IMG/VR virus record: IMGVR_UViG_3300032225_000686
From: a virus
Lineage: Duplodnaviria; Caudoviricetes
Length of the DNA stretch: 64,000 nucleotides
Direction: 5' to 3' (one strand)
In this document: one piece after another, positions 2,432 to 42,743 of the stretch
How positions within the stretch are numbered: the first letter of the stretch is position 1
Layout of the letters: every line of letters begins with the position of its first letter
Notes under the pieces: model-generated
Seen by the model: only the letters and a program-made list of their open reading frames with translations
Told to the model about the DNA's origin: nothing
Database searches by the model: none
Translations under genes and position numbers: made by a program

Positions 2432-4123
2432 ATGGCAAAAACATTCTACTGGGTAGGCGGGGCAACAGGAAATAACGCTTTGGATAAGTACAATTGGAAC
2501 AATCCTAACAATTGGGTTGTTCAAAATGTAGTATCCGGTGGTATATCTAACACCACACAAGGCATTTCCTCAACCACAACGACGATTTCGACAACCAAGA
2601 ATAACTCCGCAAATAGATTCAATGTCTCTACGGGGTCAATCGGTTCATCAACAGACCAATCAAAAACCTACTGCCCGGGTATAGGAGACTTCGTAATCAT
2701 TGGAGAATTGCCCGCGCTAGGAAACAATACACCAGTACAAGTCAAGGCTCCACTACTTTTTGGTGGTTGCGGTATTACATCAGGACAGAACTGGGCATCC
2801 TCCACCCCATATGCTTCTTGGGTGAATGCGGCAGGAAATACAGGAACAGGAGCCAACATCGGTATTTCCACTATTACGATCAAGAACAATAAAGTAGCAA
2901 ATACAGATAGTGTGGTTTACCCATACGAATGGATAGGTGGAGGAATTACCGGATCATCATCCGAAATTCTTGATTGGGTAAAGGAGCAAAATCCGGAAGT
3001 AGATGTAGAATCATTAATTACTTCAACGACATCAGATCTTCGCCTCATAGTCAAGGACTCCGTAAACACGGATATCGGAAATCCATATGAGATGGTAAAT
3101 TATAGTCCAATAAAGGTTTCTCTACTATTCAAGGCTGGAGTCAAGCAAGCATTTACTCTTGCCGGATCTCCCGCAAACATAGTGAAGACAAAGTTCTTCG
3201 ACACCAGTAGCCACATTGCATTGGGTGTTTTCGGTGGAATCTTTGATTCGGTTGAAATAAAGACAAATCCAACTAACTCCGCTCATGGTCCATCAACACG
3301 ATACATTCAATTTGGTTCTTATTCGGTTCTGAATGATGTATTTGTCGATAGGTATGCAGGCAACTTGTATGTTGATTCAAGCACATATGTAAATAACATC
3401 AATATTACAAACACTTCTTGGTACGGGTTTGATCGTGGAGTTGATCAAAACATAACACTAGAGTGCTATTTGGATGGTCCCACGGTCAGAACTGCTTTGG
3501 GATATACCGTAGGAACTGTTACTGCAACAGAGTCTACGCTAAAGGTTACTCCATGCAGCATCATTCACCCACAACTTACAAGAGATGGCTATCAGCCAGA
3601 TCTTCCATATTCTACCTCATTCCCACCAACAATAAATCTAGGATTGCCTATTGGGGAAACTCTGATTGGCGATGAACAAGAAATGAAGTCCGTTATCGTA
3701 CAGGGTCAGCAGTACGATTTGATTTCTTACTTGGATGGGAGATGGCATCTTTGCTTCAACGGTTCAGTCAACATGAACTATTTGAACGCAAATAATTGTC
3801 TAGTGAAATGCTCAAAAAACATTCCACAAACAGCAAAGGTCAAAATCGGTAATGCCGAGTTCAAAGAAAATAGTGAGATAACATTCACCAAAGCATGTCC
3901 AATTGTGAATGCTGGCGATAAAGATGTTTGGTACTTCGGACAACTGACCAATACGCTAAAGGGCGGTCTGAAGTTCTTGGATACTACTGGTATTGTTTAT
4001 GGGGGTAAAGGTATTGTTATTGCAAACACATTTGAAGATAGTGAAACAGGTATAGACAGTAGATCGGGAAGTATTAATTATCAAGACACCGATATTGAAG
4101 CAACAGTAACAACACAGGCTTAA
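2432..4123 (+). CDS. putative virion structural/adhesin-like protein, paralog A
   Basis: FYWVGG...WNNPNNW N-terminus, G/T/S/N-rich beta-type composition, late promoter. Confidence 0.6.
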   Translation: MAKTFYWVGGATGNNALDKYNWNNPNNWVVQNVVSGGISNTTQGISSTTTTISTTKNNSANRFNVSTGSIGSSTDQSKTYCPGIGDFVIIGELPALGNNTPVQVKAPLLFGGCGITSGQNWASSTPYASWVNAAGNTGTGANIGISTITIKNNKVANTDSVVYPYEWIGGGITGSSSEILDWVKEQNPEVDVESLITSTTSDLRLIVKDSVNTDIGNPYEMVNYSPIKVSLLFKAGVKQAFTLAGSPANIVKTKFFDTSSHIALGVFGGIFDSVEIKTNPTNSAHGPSTRYIQFGSYSVLNDVFVDRYAGNLYVDSSTYVNNINITNTSWYGFDRGVDQNITLECYLDGPTVRTALGYTVGTVTATESTLKVTPCSIIHPQLTRDGYQPDLPYSTSFPPTINLGLPIGETLIGDEQEMKSVIVQGQQYDLISYLDGRWHLCFNGSVNMNYLNANNCLVKCSKNIPQTAKVKIGNAEFKENSEITFTKACPIVNAGDKDVWYFGQLTNTLKGGLKFLDTTGIVYGGKGIVIANTFEDSETGIDSRSGSINYQDTDIEATVTTQA

Positions 4124-4138
4124 GAGAGGTAGAATCAA

Positions 4139-6946
4139 ATGCCAACATTTTATTGGGTAGGTAACGGTTGCCCGAAAGACGGGACTTCAAGCACATCACA
4201 CCTTTGGGGAACTAGTGAATTCTCTTGGAACAATCCAAACAACTGGATTGTTGCTCACAGCCTTCATGAAGTAACAATGGCTGGCATCGCGGGAATGACA
4301 GGACCATCACAGCCAAACGATACCTTCAAAATGAAGGTCGAAGTCTATGCTATTCCAAATAGAGTTCCGGGTCCGGGAGATAGTGTGTATGTCGGTCACT
4401 ATCCTTGGCTAGATTATCTTTCAACATCTAGTCCTTTAGGTCGTGGAGATACTAATGGAGTTCAGCAAACAAATAGCAGATTGTTTACTGAAAGGGATTG
4501 GATGTCCAATGCAAGTGGTATTGCAAGAAATGCGAAGGCAGCATTACCCGTTCTGTGGAAACCATATGATAGTACAACAGGAAAGTTTAGAACAGTAGCA
4601 GTTCCTAGTGGTGTTGCAGGAACATCTGGTGTTTCCATCAATAAAAAGTTCTACGCTACAACTAGCATTACACTAAACACCTCAAACTATTCCGGTTATT
4701 CTGAATGGTTTGACGGAACAGTATCTACAAATGCAACAGTTTTGAGTGAAGCAACATCAATTGCAAGTAGTGTTAGAGATCTGGCTTTCCACAGAAACGG
4801 TGTAAGAAACGGACAAACCAAGTGGAATACCTACAATAATGTTGCAAATCTTTCCATTCTCCCTGAGAAAGCATATGCTCCTCTCCTTTGGGGTGGTTGT
4901 GTTGCAGGAACTACGGGAGTAACTAGTGCAGCAGGAATTTCAGGCGGAAGCGGATGGACTTGGTGGCCTAATGCAAGCAGCACATTGAATACATCAAATC
5001 CAAATCTATTGGCCGCAACTGGTCAAGCATTGGATGAATTGAATATCGTATTCTATTCTGACAACTTGATGGATTCGAATGGTGCTGTTGGTGTAGCAGG
5101 TAGAGTCTATAGCACAGCAACATTTTGGGATCCATATCCATTCAAGTCAGTAGGTGATGGCTTGTTCGGTGAGGAATACAACACAGTAAAGGATAACTTC
5201 TCAAAGCCTTATTGTCAGGGAGTCACCGGAGGTCAGGGATATAATGGTCAGCCTTGCTATCCTTGTGCTGGTGGAATAACAGGAAGAGCATCAAACTACA
5301 ACGCTATCTTCACAAACAAGAGTTTGACAGCAGAAGGTGTAAGAGCAACTTGTTTGTTTGTCAAAGCAAACAAGGTAAATGTAAAGACACCCCACGAATG
5401 GAACAAGTATGCTGCGAATAACCCGTTAGGAGAGATGATCCATCATGCAGATTATCCCCCAATCTATCGTTATTCGGATAACCTTCAGAACACATCAATA
5501 CCCGAAAACACTTCTTGGATCAATAAGCAACTTGGTTTGATTACCTGTGCGGGTTCAAGTGGCTGCCAAGATACATGGGGTACTTGGGGAGGAGCAGGAA
5601 AGAACGATTCTTCTAAGTATGTCGAACTTCGTTTGGCAGACAATTGGGGAAGTAAGACAGGATCTAGTGAGAGTTACATGGGAACGCTTGTCCATGCTCA
5701 GATGAGATTCGGTCAATTCAATATGCCATATGGTAAGGTTCAAGAACTACATTTGGGCATTCCTCACGGTTCATATGGAAATGAGTATACCGATGGTAAT
5801 ATGACTATTCTCGGACTAGAGGGTGGTGTGGTGACAGCAGAAACAGTAAAGTCAGCACTAGACAACTACAAAACATATTCAAACAATGATGCTATGCAGT
5901 TGTTCAACAATACGAATTTCATAAACAGAGACAACACTAACGCCAAGTTTGGAAAGGCAAATCCATTTTGGCCGTCTTCGGGTGTGTATTTCGTAGGAAA
6001 TGACAACACAACTGATGGGACAACAAGAGTCAATATCTTGAACTCGTATTCAGTATCTTCTACAATTTTGCCAACCGCGTCTATAGGAGTTGCAAGAATC
6101 TTCTTGGGATTGGGGGATAATCTTGAATTTACAGGGAAGTCATTAACAGCCCCATCAAATGCATATGATTACACGGCAAATTACGGTAGCGTGTATGTAA
6201 ATCACGGATATCCAATAGCAGTACCAAACCGAAATAGTTCTTTCTTCGGAATCTTCCAATACGGATCAATGGTAACAGGAGATGCTTATAGAGCATCTTT
6301 GATTGAAGCCAAGTCTGTAGGTAAGGTAAATAATTCGGGGGGTACTGCTGATTCAAGTGTAAATTCAACAAGACCAAAGAGTGCATTTGTTACAAGCATT
6401 CTCAACTCTCAAGTAGGAGATATGGTAATCGACAATACCGACTACATCTTCCTATCGCCAGAAGATTTCCCAATCTCAAGCAAACAAAAGTATGGCAATA
6501 AGACTGTAGATCGTCTGTTCGTCAAAGACAACAGTAATGTTGATATCAGCAAAGATACTCATGGGTACATACACTTTGGTAGAGTTTTGAATGCTACCGC
6601 AGGATATACTGGATCAATCTACGGTGGAGTAATTTTCCAAGGAGACAACAACGAGGTTTTCTACCCCGCAGCAGGAACAAGACTATGGATTAGTGCTCTT
6701 GGTGGCAACATTACAGACAACAGACAGCAATCAATGCCTGTTGCCTTCGTTGCTTCAAATAACACACCCGGCACAGGAGAAATGCCCAATGCATTGATTG
6801 GCAGTATAGTATCATCAACTAGTAAGCAGAATCCATATTCTTATACTAGAAATGAGATTGCTATTGCCAAGAATCCTGAAGTTTCAGAACTCTACGATCA
6901 ACTAGGATTGGCAGAAGAAGATCCGAGTGCAATAGCACAATACTAA
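4139..6946 (+). CDS. putative virion structural/adhesin-like protein, paralog B
   Basis: shares FYWVG, WNNPNNW, PGxGD and APLLxGGC with 2432. Confidence 0.6.
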   Translation: MPTFYWVGNGCPKDGTSSTSHLWGTSEFSWNNPNNWIVAHSLHEVTMAGIAGMTGPSQPNDTFKMKVEVYAIPNRVPGPGDSVYVGHYPWLDYLSTSSPLGRGDTNGVQQTNSRLFTERDWMSNASGIARNAKAALPVLWKPYDSTTGKFRTVAVPSGVAGTSGVSINKKFYATTSITLNTSNYSGYSEWFDGTVSTNATVLSEATSIASSVRDLAFHRNGVRNGQTKWNTYNNVANLSILPEKAYAPLLWGGCVAGTTGVTSAAGISGGSGWTWWPNASSTLNTSNPNLLAATGQALDELNIVFYSDNLMDSNGAVGVAGRVYSTATFWDPYPFKSVGDGLFGEEYNTVKDNFSKPYCQGVTGGQGYNGQPCYPCAGGITGRASNYNAIFTNKSLTAEGVRATCLFVKANKVNVKTPHEWNKYAANNPLGEMIHHADYPPIYRYSDNLQNTSIPENTSWINKQLGLITCAGSSGCQDTWGTWGGAGKNDSSKYVELRLADNWGSKTGSSESYMGTLVHAQMRFGQFNMPYGKVQELHLGIPHGSYGNEYTDGNMTILGLEGGVVTAETVKSALDNYKTYSNNDAMQLFNNTNFINRDNTNAKFGKANPFWPSSGVYFVGNDNTTDGTTRVNILNSYSVSSTILPTASIGVARIFLGLGDNLEFTGKSLTAPSNAYDYTANYGSVYVNHGYPIAVPNRNSSFFGIFQYGSMVTGDAYRASLIEAKSVGKVNNSGGTADSSVNSTRPKSAFVTSILNSQVGDMVIDNTDYIFLSPEDFPISSKQKYGNKTVDRLFVKDNSNVDISKDTHGYIHFGRVLNATAGYTGSIYGGVIFQGDNNEVFYPAAGTRLWISALGGNITDNRQQSMPVAFVASNNTPGTGEMPNALIGSIVSSTSKQNPYSYTRNEIAIAKNPEVSELYDQLGLAEEDPSAIAQY

Positions 6947-17325: not shown

Positions 17326-17430
17326 CGAGGGGACCAGAACACTTGGATTTTTACGGCCTTTTTCTTGGCCCTCGTTCTAAATACGGGTATACTTCGCACA
17401 CAGCGTACACAACGAACATGGAGATATACT

Positions 17431-18117
17431 ATGGCTCATGCTAATCAATACACAGGTAAGAATCATTTGGTTCGTGGGGTAGGTATAAATGACCTACCAA
17501 ATGAACCTATAGAATGGACTGAGAACGGCAAACGGGTACGCTGTCCAAAATATGTTTTGTGGAATGCAATTTTACAGAGATGTTACCGCCCGGGAAAATC
17601 TGAGATCATAGCATACAAAGGAGTCACGGTTCACCCCGATTGGATTTACCGTTCAAAGTTTAATGAATGGTTGAATAGCCAACCCCAAAACAATTGGCAA
17701 GAACTTCAAATTGACAAAGACCTGTTGGTAAAGGGCAACAAGGTTTACGGGCCTGATACCTGTTGCTTTTTGACTAATCAGGAGAATAATGTTTTTCGTC
17801 CTTTGACTTCAGATAGACTGGGATCTGCTGCTTTTGACAAATCTAAAAACTACAAAAAACCTTGGCGGGCTATGATTACTCAAAGCGGTATCAAAAGAAA
17901 TTTCGGTTACTTCTCAACCAAAGAAGAAGCAGAGTTTGTAGCCATGCGAGAGTTCATGCCGTATGTTATTGAAATTGCAAACGCTAATCCTCACAGGTTT
18001 ATTAGAGATGCCATGTACCGATGGATAGACGATTGGAAGCAGGAGTTGGCGGTACTAGAGGAAAAGGCAAGAGTGGCTACTTCTAGGAATGCTTTGCCGC
18101 TTTTTGAAATAAAGTGA
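17431..18117 (+). CDS. HNH-type homing endonuclease with AP2-like C-terminal domain
   Basis: GVGIND, WxxILQRCY, IDKDLL..GNKVYGPDTCCF and FGYFSTKEEA motifs. Confidence 0.75.
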   Translation: MAHANQYTGKNHLVRGVGINDLPNEPIEWTENGKRVRCPKYVLWNAILQRCYRPGKSEIIAYKGVTVHPDWIYRSKFNEWLNSQPQNNWQELQIDKDLLVKGNKVYGPDTCCFLTNQENNVFRPLTSDRLGSAAFDKSKNYKKPWRAMITQSGIKRNFGYFSTKEEAEFVAMREFMPYVIEIANANPHRFIRDAMYRWIDDWKQELAVLEEKARVATSRNALPLFEIK

Positions 18118-18707
18118 GCAACCTAGACTTTCTAAATTTGTATTGGGAGACCTGCGATTCTGTTAGCAGCATTCGAAAGAGTAGACATTTCTTAAAGTTG
18201 GATGAACTACTGACAGAACAGATATCAGGGATAGGGATAAGAGAAGACCCGATATCAACAAGGTACAAGGGAACCAAACGATGGGATATGCACTTTCCTG
18301 ATAAGAAGGTAGCCATCGAATACAAGACCCTATCTTCGTTCAGTAAGAATGGAACTAGTGGAGGGAGTCTAGGAAAGGGATTGGGGAACCGTCTAGAAGA
18401 GGCTATCGGTTCAGCATTCGATCTCAAACAGAAAGATTCAAATTATAGGTTGGGCTATCTGATCGTCTTTGTATTCAGGGACGAGAAGTCAAATTATGAT
18501 AGCGTAGTCAAGAGAGCGATAGATGTATTTGATAAGTTGATTGAGGATGGACTCTATGATTTCTTCTGCCCCCTGTTTACTAGGGGACTGAACACTCATG
18601 GGGAACTATCGGAAACTTACTCTTTCGATAGGTTTATTGGTGATATTAGGGCGGTTCGAATACCTGAATCCCACACTTTCCCACTATACCCCACTTCCCC
18701 CCACTAA
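18114..18707 (+). CDS. PaeR7I/XhoI-like PD-(D/E)xK restriction endonuclease
   Basis: TKRWD, AIEYK, GNRLEEAIGSAFDL and LGYL motifs. Confidence 0.6.
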   Translation: MSNLDFLNLYWETCDSVSSIRKSRHFLKLDELLTEQISGIGIREDPISTRYKGTKRWDMHFPDKKVAIEYKTLSSFSKNGTSGGSLGKGLGNRLEEAIGSAFDLKQKDSNYRLGYLIVFVFRDEKSNYDSVVKRAIDVFDKLIEDGLYDFFCPLFTRGLNTHGELSETYSFDRFIGDIRAVRIPESHTFPLYPTSPH

Positions 18708-18894
18708 AAACATATGGGGGAATAATGAAAATCGTGTTCGTGTTAGCGGTAGGTATATCGCGTTGTCAAGGGGGCGCGGCAGAAATTTCAAAAGATTCTA
18801 GAAATTTTCTGTTGTCAAGGTCCGACCGCAGATTATTTTCAAAATTCTTCTAGAATCTTTTTGAAGAAATCGTGCCAGAATTTTACCAAGAGGG

Positions 18895-18922
18895 TTGACT
18901 TCCCCTAGCCATTGGTTATAAT
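18895..18922 (+). promoter_or_regulatory. sigma70-type promoter, leaderless
   Basis: TTGACT-16-TATAAT-6nt-ATG(18929). Confidence 0.85.
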
Positions 18923-18928
18923 TGAGGT

Positions 18929-20161
18929 ATGAGCATGACCCGTGAACAGACCCGTACCGCCTTCGTGACCGCCGCCTACACCTTGACTGGTGGCGAGCCG
19001 GTCATCACCCGTCCGCAAGTTTTGGAAGCCGCCGCGAAAGCCGGTGTGCCGAACCCCGCGTGGCTGACGAACGATCCCGCCTATCGCGCCGGTCGTGGGC
19101 AGTACCGTCTGCCGCCGATGCACCAAGCGTCCCGTCCTGCCGTTCCTGCCGCCCCTGTGGAGGAGGCTCCGATGGCTACCGCCGCTGCCCCGTGCAGTCT
19201 GGTGGACCTGAACTTGTCCATGCAGGCGATTGAGGCGGGTGGCTCTGCGGTCCCCTCCAAGGATTCGCTGTTCGTGCCGTATGGCGATCACGACACCATC
19301 GTGACCATCATCAAGAGCCGCCGATGGGCCCCTTCCTATGTGGTCGGTCCCTCGGGTTGCGGTAAGACCTTCTCGTATCAGCAGGCGTGTGCCGAACTGA
19401 GCCGCGAGTACTTCGAAGTCCAGATCACCTCGGAGACCACCGAAGACGATCTGCTCGGTGGGTTCCGTCTGGTTGCAGGAGAGACCAAGTTCGTCTACGG
19501 TCCCGTGGCTCTCGCCATGCTCCGTGGCGGGTTCCTTGTCCTTGACGAGATTGACCAAGCCACCAACAAGGTGATGTGCCTTCAGCAGGTTCTCAACGGC
19601 AAGCCCGTGTTCCTGAAGAAGATCAACCAGTGGGTCAAGCCCGCCGCAGGATTCAATGTGGGTGCGACCGCCAACACCAAGGGCAACGGTGACGAGAGCG
19701 GCCGATTCGTCGGGGCTAACCCGCTGAATGTGGCCTTCCGCGACCGCCTGTCAGGCATGACCTTCGTCGCTGATTACCCCGCCGCTGCCGTGGAGCGCAA
19801 GATTCTCGGCAAGGCTATGGAAGCCGTGGGCGTGAGCGACGAGGAGTTCGGCAAGCGTCTGGTGGAGTGGGCAGGCGTGATTCGCAAGACCAACCGTGAG
19901 GGCGGTATGGAAGAGACCATCACCACTCGCCGACTGGTTCAGATCTCGCAGAACCTCGCCATCCTCGGGAGCCGCGTGAAGTGTGTGGAACTCGGAACCA
20001 ACATCTACGACGAGGTGACCCGCGAAGCCATGCTCAACCTGTACAAGAAGGTTGACGAGGAGGCCGAACCGAAGGTGAAGGGGCAGGATGATCTCGGCAA
20101 GGCTCCCGTCGCTGCGGGAACCACCGCTGCCGCCGCCAACACCAACGCCTGTCCGTTCTGA
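18929..20161 (+). CDS. MoxR/CbbQ-type AAA+ ATPase (phage 'CobS-like')
   Basis: Walker A GPSGCGKT, Walker B VLDEID, ATANTKG and TTRRLV motifs. Confidence 0.9.
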   Translation: MSMTREQTRTAFVTAAYTLTGGEPVITRPQVLEAAAKAGVPNPAWLTNDPAYRAGRGQYRLPPMHQASRPAVPAAPVEEAPMATAAAPCSLVDLNLSMQAIEAGGSAVPSKDSLFVPYGDHDTIVTIIKSRRWAPSYVVGPSGCGKTFSYQQACAELSREYFEVQITSETTEDDLLGGFRLVAGETKFVYGPVALAMLRGGFLVLDEIDQATNKVMCLQQVLNGKPVFLKKINQWVKPAAGFNVGATANTKGNGDESGRFVGANPLNVAFRDRLSGMTFVADYPAAAVERKILGKAMEAVGVSDEEFGKRLVEWAGVIRKTNREGGMEETITTRRLVQISQNLAILGSRVKCVELGTNIYDEVTREAMLNLYKKVDEEAEPKVKGQDDLGKAPVAAGTTAAAANTNACPF

Positions 20162-20311
20162 GGGGAAAGCGGGATTGATTTTCAAAAAGTGTTAGATAGC
20201 ATCAGCGAACATTTAAAATCAAACACCGACTACTACGCAATCAACGCCTAACAAAATCGTCAGAAACTTCTTGACATCAAACTGAAACCTGTTATAATAG
20301 GAGAAATCAAA

Positions 20312-20632
20312 ATGACTACGACCAACACCACACTCACGATCAAGCCGCGTCAGGCTAACTTCCTAGCCGCGTTTGAACTCAAGTACGGCCGCCCTGCTAC
20401 CGTCACCCGTAAGGCTCTTGTCTCGTTCAAGCAGACTTGGGCTAACGGGGAGAAGGGTCCGTTTGGATTCACTCTGCGTTGGCCTGCGTGGCTCACGAAC
20501 TCCAGTAACTTTACTGTTCAGCGAGCGATCTATGCCCTCCCGTGGAATGAGTATGATGCATTCTTGGCTTCTGCATCAAACGGTTCGCAGCCGGTTACTC
20601 CCACGGATGCCGCTGATCCTGCGACGAACTGA
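20312..20632 (+). CDS. stand-alone homolog of the MoxR N-terminal domain
   Basis: VTR...PAWLTN...RAIYALP aligns with MoxR ITR...PAWLTN...RGQYRLP; own promoter at 20271-20298. Confidence 0.7.
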   Translation: MTTTNTTLTIKPRQANFLAAFELKYGRPATVTRKALVSFKQTWANGEKGPFGFTLRWPAWLTNSSNFTVQRAIYALPWNEYDAFLASASNGSQPVTPTDAADPATN

Positions 20633-20642
20633 GGGAGCCGTG

Positions 20643-20770
20643 GACACTCCGGTTAGAGTGTCAACCCCCGCTGCTCAAGACCTTGAATCTTGAGGAGCAA
20701 CCCCCCTCGGAAGTTGAAAGACTTCCAAGGGATTTCAACCTAGTAGTGCCACCAAGGCCGGTCGCACTAC
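20643..20770 (+). ncRNA. four tandem hairpins joined by CAACC linkers (structured leader or sRNA)
   Basis: stems GACACTC/GAGTGTC, CTCAAGA/TCTTGAG, GGAAGT/ACTTCC and GTAGTGC/GCACTAC. Confidence 0.5.
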
Positions 20771-20792
20771 GCATTCTCAAAGGAGATTTACT

Positions 20793-21092
20793 ATGGCCAT
20801 TACTGCTGCCCGTCGTACCAACAAGACCCGTCGCTCTCGCGTTGCTGCTCAGAACCTCATGGAAGGTGATGAGTTCATCATGCACGGCGAGCCGAACATC
20901 TTCGTTGATCGCATCAGCCGCAACGAGGATCGCGGCACGGTTCGCGTCACCTTCAGCAACGGCATGAAGCGTAACTATTCGTGGGGCTACAAGGCTCTCA
21001 TCGTTGAGACCCCGAGCCGCCACAACTTCCGTCGCAACACTCTGCGCCGCGCTGGTTACCCCAACTACTACGAGTACACCTGTGGTATCTAA
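20793..21092 (+). CDS. basic hypothetical protein
   Basis: AAGGAG SD; GC3-rich codons. Confidence 0.7.
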   Translation: MAITAARRTNKTRRSRVAAQNLMEGDEFIMHGEPNIFVDRISRNEDRGTVRVTFSNGMKRNYSWGYKALIVETPSRHNFRRNTLRRAGYPNYYEYTCGI

Positions 21093-21135
21093 TATTCACA
21101 TTGTATAAGGAATTTCAGATTCCAAGCATTGCGTC

Positions 21136-21300
21136 TTGGGTCTCTAGTTCCAATCACTAAATTACTGGTTGGTGGGTGGGGGCTAGGCGATTATAATGAA
21201 CTCCTGTGGAACACGCCTAGTTCCCCTACCGCCGACCGGACAAAGAAGAGACTTCGGTCCTGCCCCTACTTCGGTGGGGGCTATTTGTTATCGGACCCAA
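21136..21300 (+). ncRNA. putative rod-like structured RNA with possible pseudoknot
   Basis: long G-U-rich stem 21165-21189/21214-21239, closing stem GGGTCTCT/AGAGACTT, GTTCCA/TGGAAC complementarity, UUCG hairpin. Confidence 0.55.
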
Positions 21301-21309
21301 AAATAGTTC

Positions 21310-21337
21310 TTGACTTTTCTCAAATCGGGTGTATAAT
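21310..21337 (+). promoter_or_regulatory. sigma70-type promoter driving a non-coding hairpin
   Basis: TTGACT-16-TATAAT. Confidence 0.8.
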
Positions 21338-21343
21338 AATAGT

Positions 21344-21395
21344 ACCGCAGTTGGGTGTCAACGAGGCTGTTGTGGTCTCACACCCCCCTGCGGCT
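21344..21395 (+). ncRNA. ~50-nt hairpin RNA starting at the predicted +1
   Basis: stems CCGCAG/CTGCGG, GGGTGT/ACACCC and GAGGC/GTCTC. Confidence 0.55.
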
Positions 21396-21419
21396 TCTAA
21401 AAAATCTTGATCGTGGGGC

Positions 21420-21447
21420 TTGACTTTCCCCACCAACTCGCTATAAT
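21420..21447 (+). promoter_or_regulatory. sigma70-type promoter, near-leaderless
   Basis: TTGACT-16-TATAAT-8nt-ATG. Confidence 0.85.
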
Positions 21448-21455
21448 AAAAAAGT

Positions 21456-23774
21456 ATGACACAGACCCTCTCAAAGACAACCGTTGAATCCAAGGCAGTC
21501 CTCGCTCGCATGTTGGCCACCGAGAACCTGTCGGTGGAACACAACCCCAAGGCGGAGACCGCCTACTTCGATATCGAGAATCGGAAGTTGGTCTTCCCGT
21601 GTTGGGAGGGCATGACCGATCACCTGTACGATATGCTGGCAGGTCATGAGACCGCCCATGCCCTGTTCACGCCCGCCGGTGAAGCCGCCCTGTTCGAAGC
21701 CATCAAGGCAGTTGACCCGCGTCCTGAAGCCGCGTCTGCCGTGAAGGGTTACCTGAACATCGTGGAGGATGCCCGAATTGAGCGACTGGTCAAGGAGAAG
21801 TATCCGGGTCTGCGTCGGACCTTCTTCCTCGCCTATCAGGATCTGGTGAAGAGCGATATCATGGCTCCCGCCGTGCATCAGATTGCCACGCTGCGTCTGA
21901 TCGACCGAGCCAACATGCACTACAAGGTTGGAACCTTCGTGAATGTCCCCTTCACCGATGCGGAACTGCGTCTGGTGAAGCGAATGGCTACCACCAAGAC
22001 CTTCGAAGATGTGGTGGCTCTCGCCCGCGACCTGTGGCAGCATGAGAAGGATGAGAAGAAGAAGCAGGAGGAAGAGCAGAAGCAGCAGGAGTCGCAGCAG
22101 GGTTCTTCCGCTTCCTCTCCCGAAGGCGAAGAGGGCGAAGAGTCCGAGGCTAGCGGTAGCGATTCGCAGCAGCAGGAGAACGGCGAAGAGAACAAGGGCA
22201 AGGGTAAGAGCAAGAAGACCGAGGGCGAAGAGAAGCCTTCCGAAGAGAACAGCGGCGGTGGCAACTCCACGCCGAACAATGGTCAGGAGACCGAGGGTGG
22301 CGAAGGCGATAACAGCCCCAACAGCGGTGGCGAGCCGATGCCCGAGGAGAGCAAGACCGATGGGATGCTGAATGAGTACAGCAAGTCGAAGCGGAATGAA
22401 AAGGCCAACTACTTCGTGACCGCCGACCTGCCGAAGTTCAACACCGCGAAGGGCATCATCCCCGCTAGCACGGTGGTCCCGATGCTCGTTGAGTGTGGTG
22501 AGAAGAACAACGGTCTGAAGTTCTTCACCGAGTGGAAGGAGCGCAATGCCGAGAGCGTTGCCGTCCTGTGCCGCGAGTTCGAACGCCGCCGCGCTGCCGA
22601 AGCCGCGAGCCGTACCTCCATGAGCGATTCGGGAACGATTGATGTGAACCGCCTGTGGTCCTACCGCGTGAGCGACGAGATCTTCCGTCAGTACGCAAAT
22701 GTGAAGAATGGTCAGAGCCACGGCATTCAAGTGTTCGTGGACTTCAGCGGCTCCATGAGTGGCATCCTGTACGAGACCATGAGTCAGATGGTTTCCCTCG
22801 CTGCCTTCTGCCGCCGAATGAACATCCCCTTCGATGTCTACGCCTTCACCGATGGTCTGCCGACGCAATGGCTGACCGATGTGGATGGCGAGACCCTGCG
22901 GACAATGGGTTCGGATGGCTACAATAAGGAAATGAGTCCTTGGATTCAGACCGAGAAGACTATGAGAATGAGTCACACTCACTTCCGTCTGGTTCATCTG
23001 CTGACGAGTGGTCTGTCGGAGCGAAACTTCCGCATGGCCGTGGGTGGTATGCTCGCCATCGTTTCCCGTGCCGTGGCGGATAGCGATTGGGGTAGCGGCA
23101 AGGCCAATCGTAGTGCGGCTCAACTGTTCCGCCTGAATGGAACCCCGACCAATCAGGCAACGCTCGCCGCGATGACCATCATCCCCGAGTTCCGTAAGAA
23201 GAACAATCTGCAAATCGTCCACGCGGTCTTCCTGACCGATGGAGAGAGTGGTGACCGCTTCTCTGGTCCGACCAAGTACGAGAACATTTACGGTCGCAGC
23301 ACCGTTGATGTCTACGGTTACGAACTGCGCGATAGCGTGACGGGTAACACCGAGAAGGCGATGAATTCCTACTGCGCGACGAGTCAGAACCGTGCGCTGA
23401 ATCACCTGCTCGCCAAGCGTATCCCCGGCTGCAATGTGATCGGCATCTCCCTCTGCCCGACCCGCGAGTTCCGAACCAAGATGTCTGACGGTCTCGCCAA
23501 GCGGAAGAATCGCTACGGCTTCGATGTCGAGATGGAAGCCGCAAAGGTGAAGGGCTTCTGCGAGGCTGAGGACTGCTACGGTTACACCAAGTGGTTTGGA
23601 ATGAACGCTCCCCACCTTGATTCGAATGACTACTTCATGGGCATCACCGACGATGCACCGAAGGCAGTACTGACCAAGGCATTCGCCAAGACGATCAAGC
23701 AGGGTACGATGAACCGTCTGCTCCTGAGCCGCTTCGTGGACCTGATCGCTAATCACGGCGCGAAGAAGAATTGA
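21456..23774 (+). CDS. VWA-domain protein with N-terminal HExxH peptidase-like domain (MoxR partner, CobT-like)
   Basis: GHETAH, NIVEDARIE, acidic linker, MIDAS DFSGS...GTP...LTDG. Confidence 0.9.
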   Translation: MTQTLSKTTVESKAVLARMLATENLSVEHNPKAETAYFDIENRKLVFPCWEGMTDHLYDMLAGHETAHALFTPAGEAALFEAIKAVDPRPEAASAVKGYLNIVEDARIERLVKEKYPGLRRTFFLAYQDLVKSDIMAPAVHQIATLRLIDRANMHYKVGTFVNVPFTDAELRLVKRMATTKTFEDVVALARDLWQHEKDEKKKQEEEQKQQESQQGSSASSPEGEEGEESEASGSDSQQQENGEENKGKGKSKKTEGEEKPSEENSGGGNSTPNNGQETEGGEGDNSPNSGGEPMPEESKTDGMLNEYSKSKRNEKANYFVTADLPKFNTAKGIIPASTVVPMLVECGEKNNGLKFFTEWKERNAESVAVLCREFERRRAAEAASRTSMSDSGTIDVNRLWSYRVSDEIFRQYANVKNGQSHGIQVFVDFSGSMSGILYETMSQMVSLAAFCRRMNIPFDVYAFTDGLPTQWLTDVDGETLRTMGSDGYNKEMSPWIQTEKTMRMSHTHFRLVHLLTSGLSERNFRMAVGGMLAIVSRAVADSDWGSGKANRSAAQLFRLNGTPTNQATLAAMTIIPEFRKKNNLQIVHAVFLTDGESGDRFSGPTKYENIYGRSTVDVYGYELRDSVTGNTEKAMNSYCATSQNRALNHLLAKRIPGCNVIGISLCPTREFRTKMSDGLAKRKNRYGFDVEMEAAKVKGFCEAEDCYGYTKWFGMNAPHLDSNDYFMGITDDAPKAVLTKAFAKTIKQGTMNRLLLSRFVDLIANHGAKKN

Positions 23775-23797
23775 ATTTTCAAAAAGGAGAAAGACCA

Positions 23798-24184
23798 ATG
23801 TATCGCATGACCGTAATCACCGAACCGCAGAACGCAAGCCAAGAAAAACTTCCGCCTATCCCTCTTCATAAGGCATGGCTCTACCACACCGATACCAATA
23901 CATGGCTACTGCATCTAGAGGGACAGTTCACTGGTGTGGGCGTATCCGCTGTCCGAGCCAACGCTGGAGTTTCTCTGTACGATCTCTACGGACACTTCCG
24001 CCCTGTAGAAATTCAAATCACCTGCACCAACAAGGATGAGTTTTTGAAACTTCGTGGTTCTCACAAGGTCTCACAGATCATGTTGGGTGACCCTGAAGAT
24101 GGTGGAGTGGATCATATCAGCGTGTCTATGACCAACATCACTAACGACAAGTGGACTGATGTAGCGAAGTGGAGCCGCGACTGA
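23798..24184 (+). CDS. hypothetical protein
   Basis: AAGGAG SD; followed by a terminator. Confidence 0.65.
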   Translation: MYRMTVITEPQNASQEKLPPIPLHKAWLYHTDTNTWLLHLEGQFTGVGVSAVRANAGVSLYDLYGHFRPVEIQITCTNKDEFLKLRGSHKVSQIMLGDPEDGGVDHISVSMTNITNDKWTDVAKWSRD

Positions 24185-24207
24185 ACTAACGAGCGTTTGA
24201 GGGTCTG

Positions 24208-24245
24208 ACCCCTGTAGGTGTAAAAGCCTACGGGGGTTTTTGTTT
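24208..24245 (+). terminator. intrinsic terminator
   Basis: ACCCCTGTAGG...CCTACGGGGGT followed by a T tract. Confidence 0.8.
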
Positions 24246-32316: not shown

Positions 32317-32343
32317 GGTCCGAATAATCTTTGAAAAACCACT

Positions 32344-32381
32344 ACCCACCCTCTTGACCGAGGGTGGGTTTGTGTTATAAT
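32344..32381 (+). promoter_or_regulatory. terminator-like hairpin whose loop is the -35 box of a leaderless promoter
   Basis: ACCCACCCTC-TTGACC-GAGGGTGGGT; TATAAT at 32376-32381; ATG at 32388. Confidence 0.75.
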
Positions 32382-42643: not shown

Positions 42644-42728
42644 GGGCAGATGGCAGAGTGGTCTAATGCAGCGGTTTACTAAACCGCAGAGGTTAACGCC
42701 TCCGAGGGTTCGAATCCTTCTCTGCCCG
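42644..42728 (+). tRNA. tRNA-Ser(ACT), unusual A34
   Basis: GCGGT-TTACTAA-ACCGC; long variable arm; G73. Confidence 0.85.
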
Positions 42729-42743
42729 CTTGGAATACTAAAT

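Follow-up and report, generated by a model that had tools for sequence, protein, structure and literature searches.

The locus examined here raises the question of what structured RNA elements do when they are interleaved with genes for a MoxR ATPase and its peptidase-vWA partner. Pairs of this family are known as ATP-driven remodeling chaperones, and a sequence-only reading of the locus had proposed that the RNAs and the basic proteins encoded beside them are components or regulators of a MoxR-vWA ribonucleoprotein takeover machine. The locus occupies positions 18895-24245 of the window, i.e., the whole stretch of 64,000 nt that was analyzed. It belongs to an uncultured T4-like phage from freshwater and forms part of its early region.

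Organization and setting of the locus

The phage is a large one: T4-like ORFs seen in the window include those for the sliding clamp, clamp loader, RegA, polymerase and UvsX. The window also encodes 15 tRNAs, most of them reading A-ending codons. ARAGORN calls a tRNA-Ser with the unusual anticodon ACT at 42644-42729. The relatives come from freshwater metagenomes. At 2432-6946 lie two large low-GC proteins alike at their N-termini (FYWVG...WNNPNNW), which are probably virion or adhesin-like, while the region upstream of MoxR (17365-18707) encodes an HNH-type endonuclease followed by a restriction-endonuclease-like ORF with a weak XhoI match, a pair repeated in the relative L001. Within the locus itself, every part given in the sequence-only reading was recovered in the same position and order. 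The promoters, genes and distal terminator are as follows:

18895-18922 (+): promoter P1, sigma-70 type, with the ATG 6 nt after the -10 box
18929-20161 (+): MoxR/'CobS'-type AAA+ ATPase, 410 aa, with a probable winged-helix N-domain at about residues 5-65 (Pfam and PHROG matches)
20271-20298 (+): promoter P2, driving the two-gene operon N106-B99 (12/12 consensus matches; a promoter stands at the same place in relatives)
20312-20632 (+): N106, a free MoxR N-domain homolog of 106 aa, probable winged-helix DNA-binding protein (sequence and model comparison)
20793-21092 (+): B99, a basic 99-aa protein predicted from its model to be an SH3/KOW-type barrel with a fold like that of EF-P domain I; its C-terminal helix is rich in Arg
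21310-21337 (+): promoter P3, part of an optional insert (consensus scan)
21420-21447 (+): promoter P4, with the ATG 8 nt after the -10 box and no Shine-Dalgarno sequence
21456-23774 (+): MoxR partner of 772 aa, a zincin-like HExxH domain, an acidic linker and a vWA domain with MIDAS (phrog_459, E 8e-160)
23798-24184 (+): 128-aa ORF, found in the closest relatives only, with ordinary codon use
24207-24245 (+): intrinsic terminator at the segment end (hairpin 24207-24238; scan and fold)

The description of the four promoters as near-consensus is borne out by their 11-12 matches to the 12 consensus positions. The type is not special to the locus: the window contains about 17 such sites, and two related genomes have 15-21. 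In many of them, those of MoxR and vWA included, the ATG lies 6-8 nt past the -10 box; judging from this spacing, the MoxR mRNA is probably leaderless, as is probably the vWA mRNA, whose start moreover lacks a Shine-Dalgarno sequence. On the strength of these promoters, host RNA polymerase would transcribe MoxR, N106-B99 and vWA at once.

MoxR matches Pfam AAA_5 (E 2e-18) and phrog_249 (E 5e-88), is 41-47% identical to cyanophage and pelagiphage CobS, and contains the Walker A (GPSGCGKT), Walker B (LDEID), sensor 1 (ATANT), Arg finger (RDRL) and sensor 2 (TTRRL) motifs. The translation of its partner contains HETAH and DFSGS (MIDAS) motifs, and in the relatives too MoxR is linked to a nearby MIDAS-bearing protein. 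As phrog_249 and phrog_459 are known core genes, the pair is, as the sequence-only reading stated, an established one in T4-like phages, and MoxR and the vWA-peptidase would form the usual ATP-driven remodeling pair. CobN, the catalytic subunit of cobaltochelatase CobNST, is not seen among the ORFs of the window. By analogy with the Bas54 MoxR bas54_0063, which is required against the DS-28 defense system (PMC13716836), counter-defense is a possible job of this MoxR.

The GC content of the segment is 54-63% versus 40-50% in the rest of the window, and MoxR, vWA and B99 occupy ranks 1-3 in synonymous GC3 among 71 window genes, in keeping with the earlier observation that codons here are much more G/C-ending than in the flanking DNA. 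The word 'island' that accompanied that observation is misleading. In the related genomes G006 and G002 the GC3 ranking is also topped by MoxR, vWA, N106 or B99, alongside UvsX, polymerase, the sliding clamp and the single-strand binding protein; these genes avoid AAA, CAA and AGA codons. Because the same bias recurs in the same genes of relatives and in core replication genes, a foreign origin was discarded, and the G/C-ending preference is what one would expect of early genes that are highly expressed and adapted to a host richer in GC, rather than of a recent island. As for that host, a search of prokaryote genomes found no B99 homologs, and one member sitting in a Micrococcales bin is too weak a lead for naming it. 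A related phage carries a tmRNA (G002:C1:141090-141432, tag ANKQTRRYALAA) that is a possible host clue.

N106 and B99 form the stable unit

The identification of N106 as a free paralog of the MoxR N-domain is upheld by BLASTP (E 1e-4) and hhalign (91-92%, E about 1e-6), by the pattern shared with the MoxR N-terminus, F.AA...G.P..TR...L...PAWLTN...R..Y.LP, and by its Atlas model, which aligns to the N-termini of five phage AAA_5/CobS clusters (TM 0.48-0.55) and to two further stand-alone phage clusters. N106 has 19 homologs; it found no match among 50,697 phage records, nor did its model among viral structures. The model (pLDDT 60) has many matches to wHTH folds, which are weak (Z at most 3.2), and the nearest named Atlas families include DpnI_C at 0.82.

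B99 has 37 homologs and a better model (pLDDT 75), whose best six fold matches are EF-P, EfpL and eIF5A with Z of 6.2-7.4, below the tool threshold of 8 (a separate Foldseek search gave E of at least 0.06); the top alignment, to EF-P domain I, has Z 7.4 and an rmsd of 1.6-1.7 over 57-58 residues. Barrels of this type are common among small phage proteins. Sequence comparison with EF-P, including EFP_N, gave no match, and although the B99 model aligns best to the domain I barrel, B99 is rejected as a member of that family, being a single barrel of 99 aa that lacks the OB domains and the modified Lys/Arg loop (RNE..G in place of the PGKG type). T4 MotB, an early nucleic-acid-binding protein with a predicted KOW domain (PMC7827196), is a further protein with which B99 may be compared, but it combines KOW with OB domains and has no sequence match to B99, and homology was likewise rejected (hhalign probability 0.1). 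We read both N106 and B99 as probable early nucleic-acid-binding proteins.

Among the approximately 78 loci found via B99, N106 is the gene immediately upstream except in four lineages, MoxR is within 4-6 kb in about half, while vWA can be downstream, divergent upstream, far away or absent; in two genomes without a local MoxR, that gene is 13-15 kb from N106-B99. Since N106 and B99 travel together with or without MoxR and vWA, the stable unit is this small-gene operon and not a MoxR-RNA-vWA assembly. Nearly every relative has a terminator-like hairpin after B99. Further, a third small helix-turn-helix gene, whose product starts MPRPRK, leads the operon in every lineage without the RNA element E2 (see below) and is absent from every lineage with it, including the 98% complete G006, a distribution that amounts to a single clade-level event. 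Examples of this gene are:

L118:852-1121 and L121:839-1114: MPRPRK helix-turn-helix gene; also in L043, L028 and all E2-less loci

Lineage-specific RNA elements

Two of the three structured elements vary among the relatives:

20633-20773 (+): E1, four-hairpin intergenic array (z -4.9)
21345-21393 (+): E3, 49-nt hairpin (z -3.5), seen only in the window, L009 and L010

The spacer between N106 and B99 ranges across relatives from an overlap to 315 nt and holds zero to seven hairpins. What the clade keeps as a core of E1 is its last hairpin (20740-20773), which has CUAG/CGCA at the base, and hairpins 2 and 3 covary among close relatives, the number of hairpins being lineage-specific. E1 was rejected as a translational switch: blocking its 5' strand gives no consistent change in Shine-Dalgarno access, and such access is no lower than in 71 control genes. 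A pairing between the E1 and E2 loops is not conserved among relatives.

Several features of the spacer may be recorded in passing. A 7-nt loop, CYUUGAA, closed by GA/UC and resembling a tRNA-Gln anticodon loop or a DNA motif, is present in E1 hairpin 2 (20686-20697) and in the terminators of L003, L057 and L060. The sequence GGAUUU, which we take to resemble an RNase E site, is found 3' of a hairpin once or twice in E1 clade-wide (20733-20738 in the window). In L002, L003 and L057-L062 the spacer is a 300-315 nt multi-branch structure, the first hairpin loop region of which also carries ACUCCUG(U), as in the E2 seed.

Promoter P3 and E3 together form an optional insert that is missing in L001 and L150. 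A pattern search for E3 elsewhere returned five matches, all by chance, and in L011 (4270-4390) the slot of E3 holds an unrelated, promoter-driven, structured non-coding insert of ~120 nt with its own terminator. E1 and E3 would either act in cis on the stability or processing of the mRNA or be extras of particular lineages.

A conserved rod at the end of the N106-B99 transcript

The third element was originally described as a structured unit of ~165 nt. Structure is indeed present at 21109-21281 (z -4.8 for 21095-21244), but it is not a single unit and resolves into a clade-limited hairpin, a conserved rod, a UUCG hairpin and an intrinsic terminator:

21109-21151 (+): E2a hairpin, found in the closest relatives only, with compensatory changes
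21165-21239 (+): E2, a 23-pair rod with a 24-nt apical loop, candidate trans-acting antisense RNA (fold and covariation)
21200-21209 (+): candidate seed ACUCCUGUGG in the E2 loop, with the CCUGUG core at 21203-21208, complementary to the gp23 ribosome-binding site of relatives
21262-21290 (+): intrinsic terminator with a UUCG loop, closing the P2 operon (scan and fold)

All 22 distinct copies of E2 form a rod of 18-30 pairs (z -1.8 to -6.1) with an apical region of 16-27 nt across the clade, and the terminator comes next. The sequences of the arms are unrelated between lineages while their pairing is kept, with two-sided changes at 9/9 consensus pairs; none of 500 shuffles reaches the covariation score, a test inflated by the relatedness of the copies, and slid controls score far lower. 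In 21 of the 22 copies the plus strand folds at least as well as the reverse. E2 is thus almost certainly a real conserved structure, and the comparison of relatives by covariation, which the sequence-only reading had itself recommended, finds at least this one of its RNAs to be conserved. At the sequence level just one stretch is nearly invariant, YCCUGUGR, which lies toward the 3' side of the loop; its CCUGUG is constant except for a single C at position 4.

A covariance model recovers one E2 per genome, always 3' of B99 and without a promoter of its own, and none in the 93% complete G002; a pattern search beyond the N106-B99 context gave 24 matches, the real ones being known loci only. In the N106 tree E2 marks a single clade (100/100), and because of this its co-occurrence with an adjacent MoxR and its mutual exclusion with the third helix-turn-helix gene each count as single events. 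Rfam has no match in the window region or in 17 loci, C4 (RF01695) and 6S included. The literature search found no paper on the motif, which may yet be in the supplement of a viral structured-RNA catalogue (PMC10690425). Two further candidates were rejected, namely a small reverse-strand ORF over E2, the start codon of which is not conserved, and an anticodon-loop mimic (CU-GUG-RN), the anticodon stem of which is not conserved.

Complementarity of the E2 loop to capsid gene ribosome-binding sites

The E2 loop is complementary over 9-11 nt to the Shine-Dalgarno region of gp23, and sometimes of gp18, in related phages, a match that was noticed post hoc, after viewing hits. The sole contig with both E2 and the target is the 98% complete G006, in which E2 and gp23 are about 37 kb apart. 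A scan of its start regions for seed complements found gp23 and gp18, both with UCACAGGAGAC. This sequence complements exactly the loop that three E2 lineages have, and with the loop of G006 itself it forms an 11-pair duplex. CACAGG is present in 4 of the 169 start regions of this genome, and by duplex energy gp23 ranks 4/169, not top. The common AGGAG makes up part of the seed duplex, and in several E2 copies the seed is predicted to be partly paired.

In the gp23 clade of G006, TGTCAC is kept before AGGAG in non-coding DNA, a place where other family members vary, and the E2-less G002 has no seed match at gp23 or gp18. Six of seven distinct gp23 sites on the E2 side have the match versus 0/28 outside, counts that are not independent, presence versus absence being one clade-level event; at unrelated T4-like gp23 sites the figure is 0/76. 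No gp23 or gp18 was found on the contigs of other E2 phages, no N106 on other gp23 contigs, and no other recurring phage target of the seed was seen.

Additional sites (L316, L317, L319 and L320) are known from gp23 loci fetched from sister branches, without a recovered E2. L320 is the gp23 locus closest to the L003 genome (UvsW 87-88% identical), and since the core genes of the window are nearer to that genome than to G006 (UvsX 88% versus 75%), it is the best available stand-in for the gp23 of the window phage. Its site, ACCACAGGAGU, has a 10-pair match to the window loop and differs from that of G006 at two positions where the loops also differ, in the pairing-preserving direction: loops ending in GUGAC face GUCAC (G006), and those ending in GUGG(U) (window and L003 clades) face ACCAC (L320). 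These constitute two apparent compensatory changes between E2 loops and gp23 sites. The predicted energies of cognate versus swapped duplexes are -18.3 versus -12.3, -19.3 versus -15.1 and -15.9 versus -13.2 kcal/mol. The gp23 sites of L317 and L319 read CCAUAGG, with one G-U pair to the seed; that of L316 has a mismatch within the seed, and gp18 of L320 has no match.

These seed-site matches point to base-pairing with a late mRNA instead of a role in a chaperone. The P2 transcript would end in E2, a stable rod ahead of the terminator, which, either as the mRNA tail or cut free, would expose an unpaired seed, given the structure supported by covariation. The seed is predicted to pair with the Shine-Dalgarno region of the gp23 mRNA, and in some lineages of gp18, and such pairing would hold back capsid translation until late mRNA outnumbers E2. 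On these sequence comparisons, the likeliest function of E2, and one that we modestly favor, is to control capsid translation as an antisense RNA; E2 would probably delay capsid production early in infection rather than serve an RNA-containing chaperone. If this model is true, CCACAGGAG (or CCAUAGGAG) is expected before gp23 of the window's phage.

The capsid protein triggers several bacterial defenses (Lit, CapRel), and its delay could therefore matter beyond timing. Targets are known for few of the seed-pairing RNAs in virulent phages, and E2 would offer an undescribed motif for which a target can be named and compensatory variants exist in nature. The earlier examples given in PMC4933390 are only the T4 band C and D RNAs, of unknown function.

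Alternative explanations for E2

The alternative that survives best has E2 acting in cis on the N106-B99 mRNA, as a double-stranded processing or stability rod with a protein-bound loop (e.g., bound by B99 in autoregulation), the capsid match being coincidental around the Shine-Dalgarno sequence. The location of E2 in the 3' UTR, promoterless and immediately 5' of the terminator, accords with such a role, as do the KOW-type fold and Arg-rich tail of B99, and a rod with at least 20 pairs is a suitable RNase III substrate, the lambda sib and T7 RNase III sites being rods of this kind. However, the invariant residues of B99 are retained also in lineages without E2, and a cis role leaves unexplained why conservation of the non-coding bases before the gp23 Shine-Dalgarno sequence is confined to the E2 side, and why these bases change together with the loop. 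We regard it as unlikely, if still a serious competitor.

A second proposal retains action in trans and makes host mRNAs or other CAGGAG-type phage sites the main targets, E2 being a broad anti-Shine-Dalgarno takeover RNA. The loops of several lineages do contain an anti-Shine-Dalgarno-like CUCCU, and other G006 start regions score equal to gp23. Yet the invariant CCUGUG extends past the Shine-Dalgarno sequence, pairing with a generic one would be poor in lineages that have AAUCCU or AAACCU, and recurrence of another phage target was not seen, all of which make this improbable.

The ribonucleoprotein takeover machine of the sequence-only reading draws on the interleaving of the parts in the window phage, on the occurrence of E2 only where MoxR adjoins N106-B99, and on the N-domain that N106 has in common with MoxR. 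Against it, the E2-MoxR co-occurrence represents one clade, N106-B99 is often 13-15 kb off MoxR, E1 and E3 are dispensable, and the shared domain looks like a winged helix. While the view of the segment as an early module is supported, the RNAs are tied to MoxR-vWA by nothing but location in one clade, and an RNA-associated chaperone is accordingly quite improbable. Finally, a 6S-like RNA polymerase decoy (closing stem, asymmetric bubble, TATAAT loop and pseudoknot), the closing stem and loop-bubble pairing of which can be drawn in the window alone, is largely refuted and can be discounted, as the closing stem keeps 5/8 pairs in L011 with no two-sided change and the pseudoknot 3-4/6 pairs in three relatives, the competing E2a hairpin covaries, the 5' part is absent in other clades, TATAAT is not conserved and there is no Rfam match.

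A candidate DNA site for the MoxR N-domain

A further conserved element of the locus is a DNA sequence found near the promoters:

21287-21296 (+): conserved DNA box GTTATCGGAC, upstream of vWA promoters, candidate winged-helix site (box search in relatives)

The TTATCGGAC box is upstream of 27 of 33 vWA and 20 of 30 MoxR genes versus 4-5% of random windows, and is rare elsewhere. Often there are two to four copies, and both orientations are used; lineages that lack E2 have the box as well as those that carry it. The MoxR promoter of the window has no full box, just a partial reversed copy at 18819. A reversed variant with a one-base insertion was also noted at 32317-32327, upstream of a promoter at 32354.

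The winged-helix-like domain of MoxR and N106 would probably bind DNA, with the TTATCGGAC boxes as the best candidate sites. Given such a domain on MoxR plus a free copy beside it, a box-linked autoregulatory or DNA-anchoring role is plausible. For the phage 'CobS' ATPase, which is widespread and mislabelled, the box is a first candidate for what the N-domain binds. The full picture, in which a clade of freshwater T4-like phages times its late program by blocking translation of the major capsid protein with a trans-acting small RNA that an early operon yields at its 3' end, and the DNA-binding domain shared by MoxR and N106 reads a promoter box, can be put forward only tentatively, as a possibility short of even likelihood. 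If true, the N-domain of phage CobS, long without an explanation, gains a DNA target and the T4-like phages gain a seed-pairing regulator.

Comparison with known systems

The protein pair of the window belongs to the same families as the CobS (phrog_249) and peptidase-vWA (phrog_459) proteins of T4-like cyanophages and pelagiphages; it differs from the known phage pairs in adjoining a free copy of the N-domain, a KOW-type protein and a conserved RNA.

With regard to the RNA, the C4 antisense RNA of P1 and P7 (RF01695) and the CI RNA of P4 provide a precedent for short, loop-exposed complementarity acting in trans on a ribosome-binding site, which is what is predicted for the loop of E2. However, C4 is a cloverleaf processed from a 5' leader and functions in temperate immunity, whereas E2 is a single rod in a 3' UTR of a T4-like phage with a late structural target, and it is not a member of the C4 family, the RF01695 covariance model being unmatched.

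In terms of proposed purpose, the closest parallel is Pseudomonas phage PAK_P3, in which early antisense transcripts over structural genes have been proposed to shut these down early (PMC4933390), i.e., the same early silencing of late structural genes as is envisaged for E2. The PAK_P3 antisense transcripts are cis-encoded and fully complementary, in contrast to E2, which would act through a seed of 9-11 nt, at a distance from gp23 that in G006 is ~37 kb.
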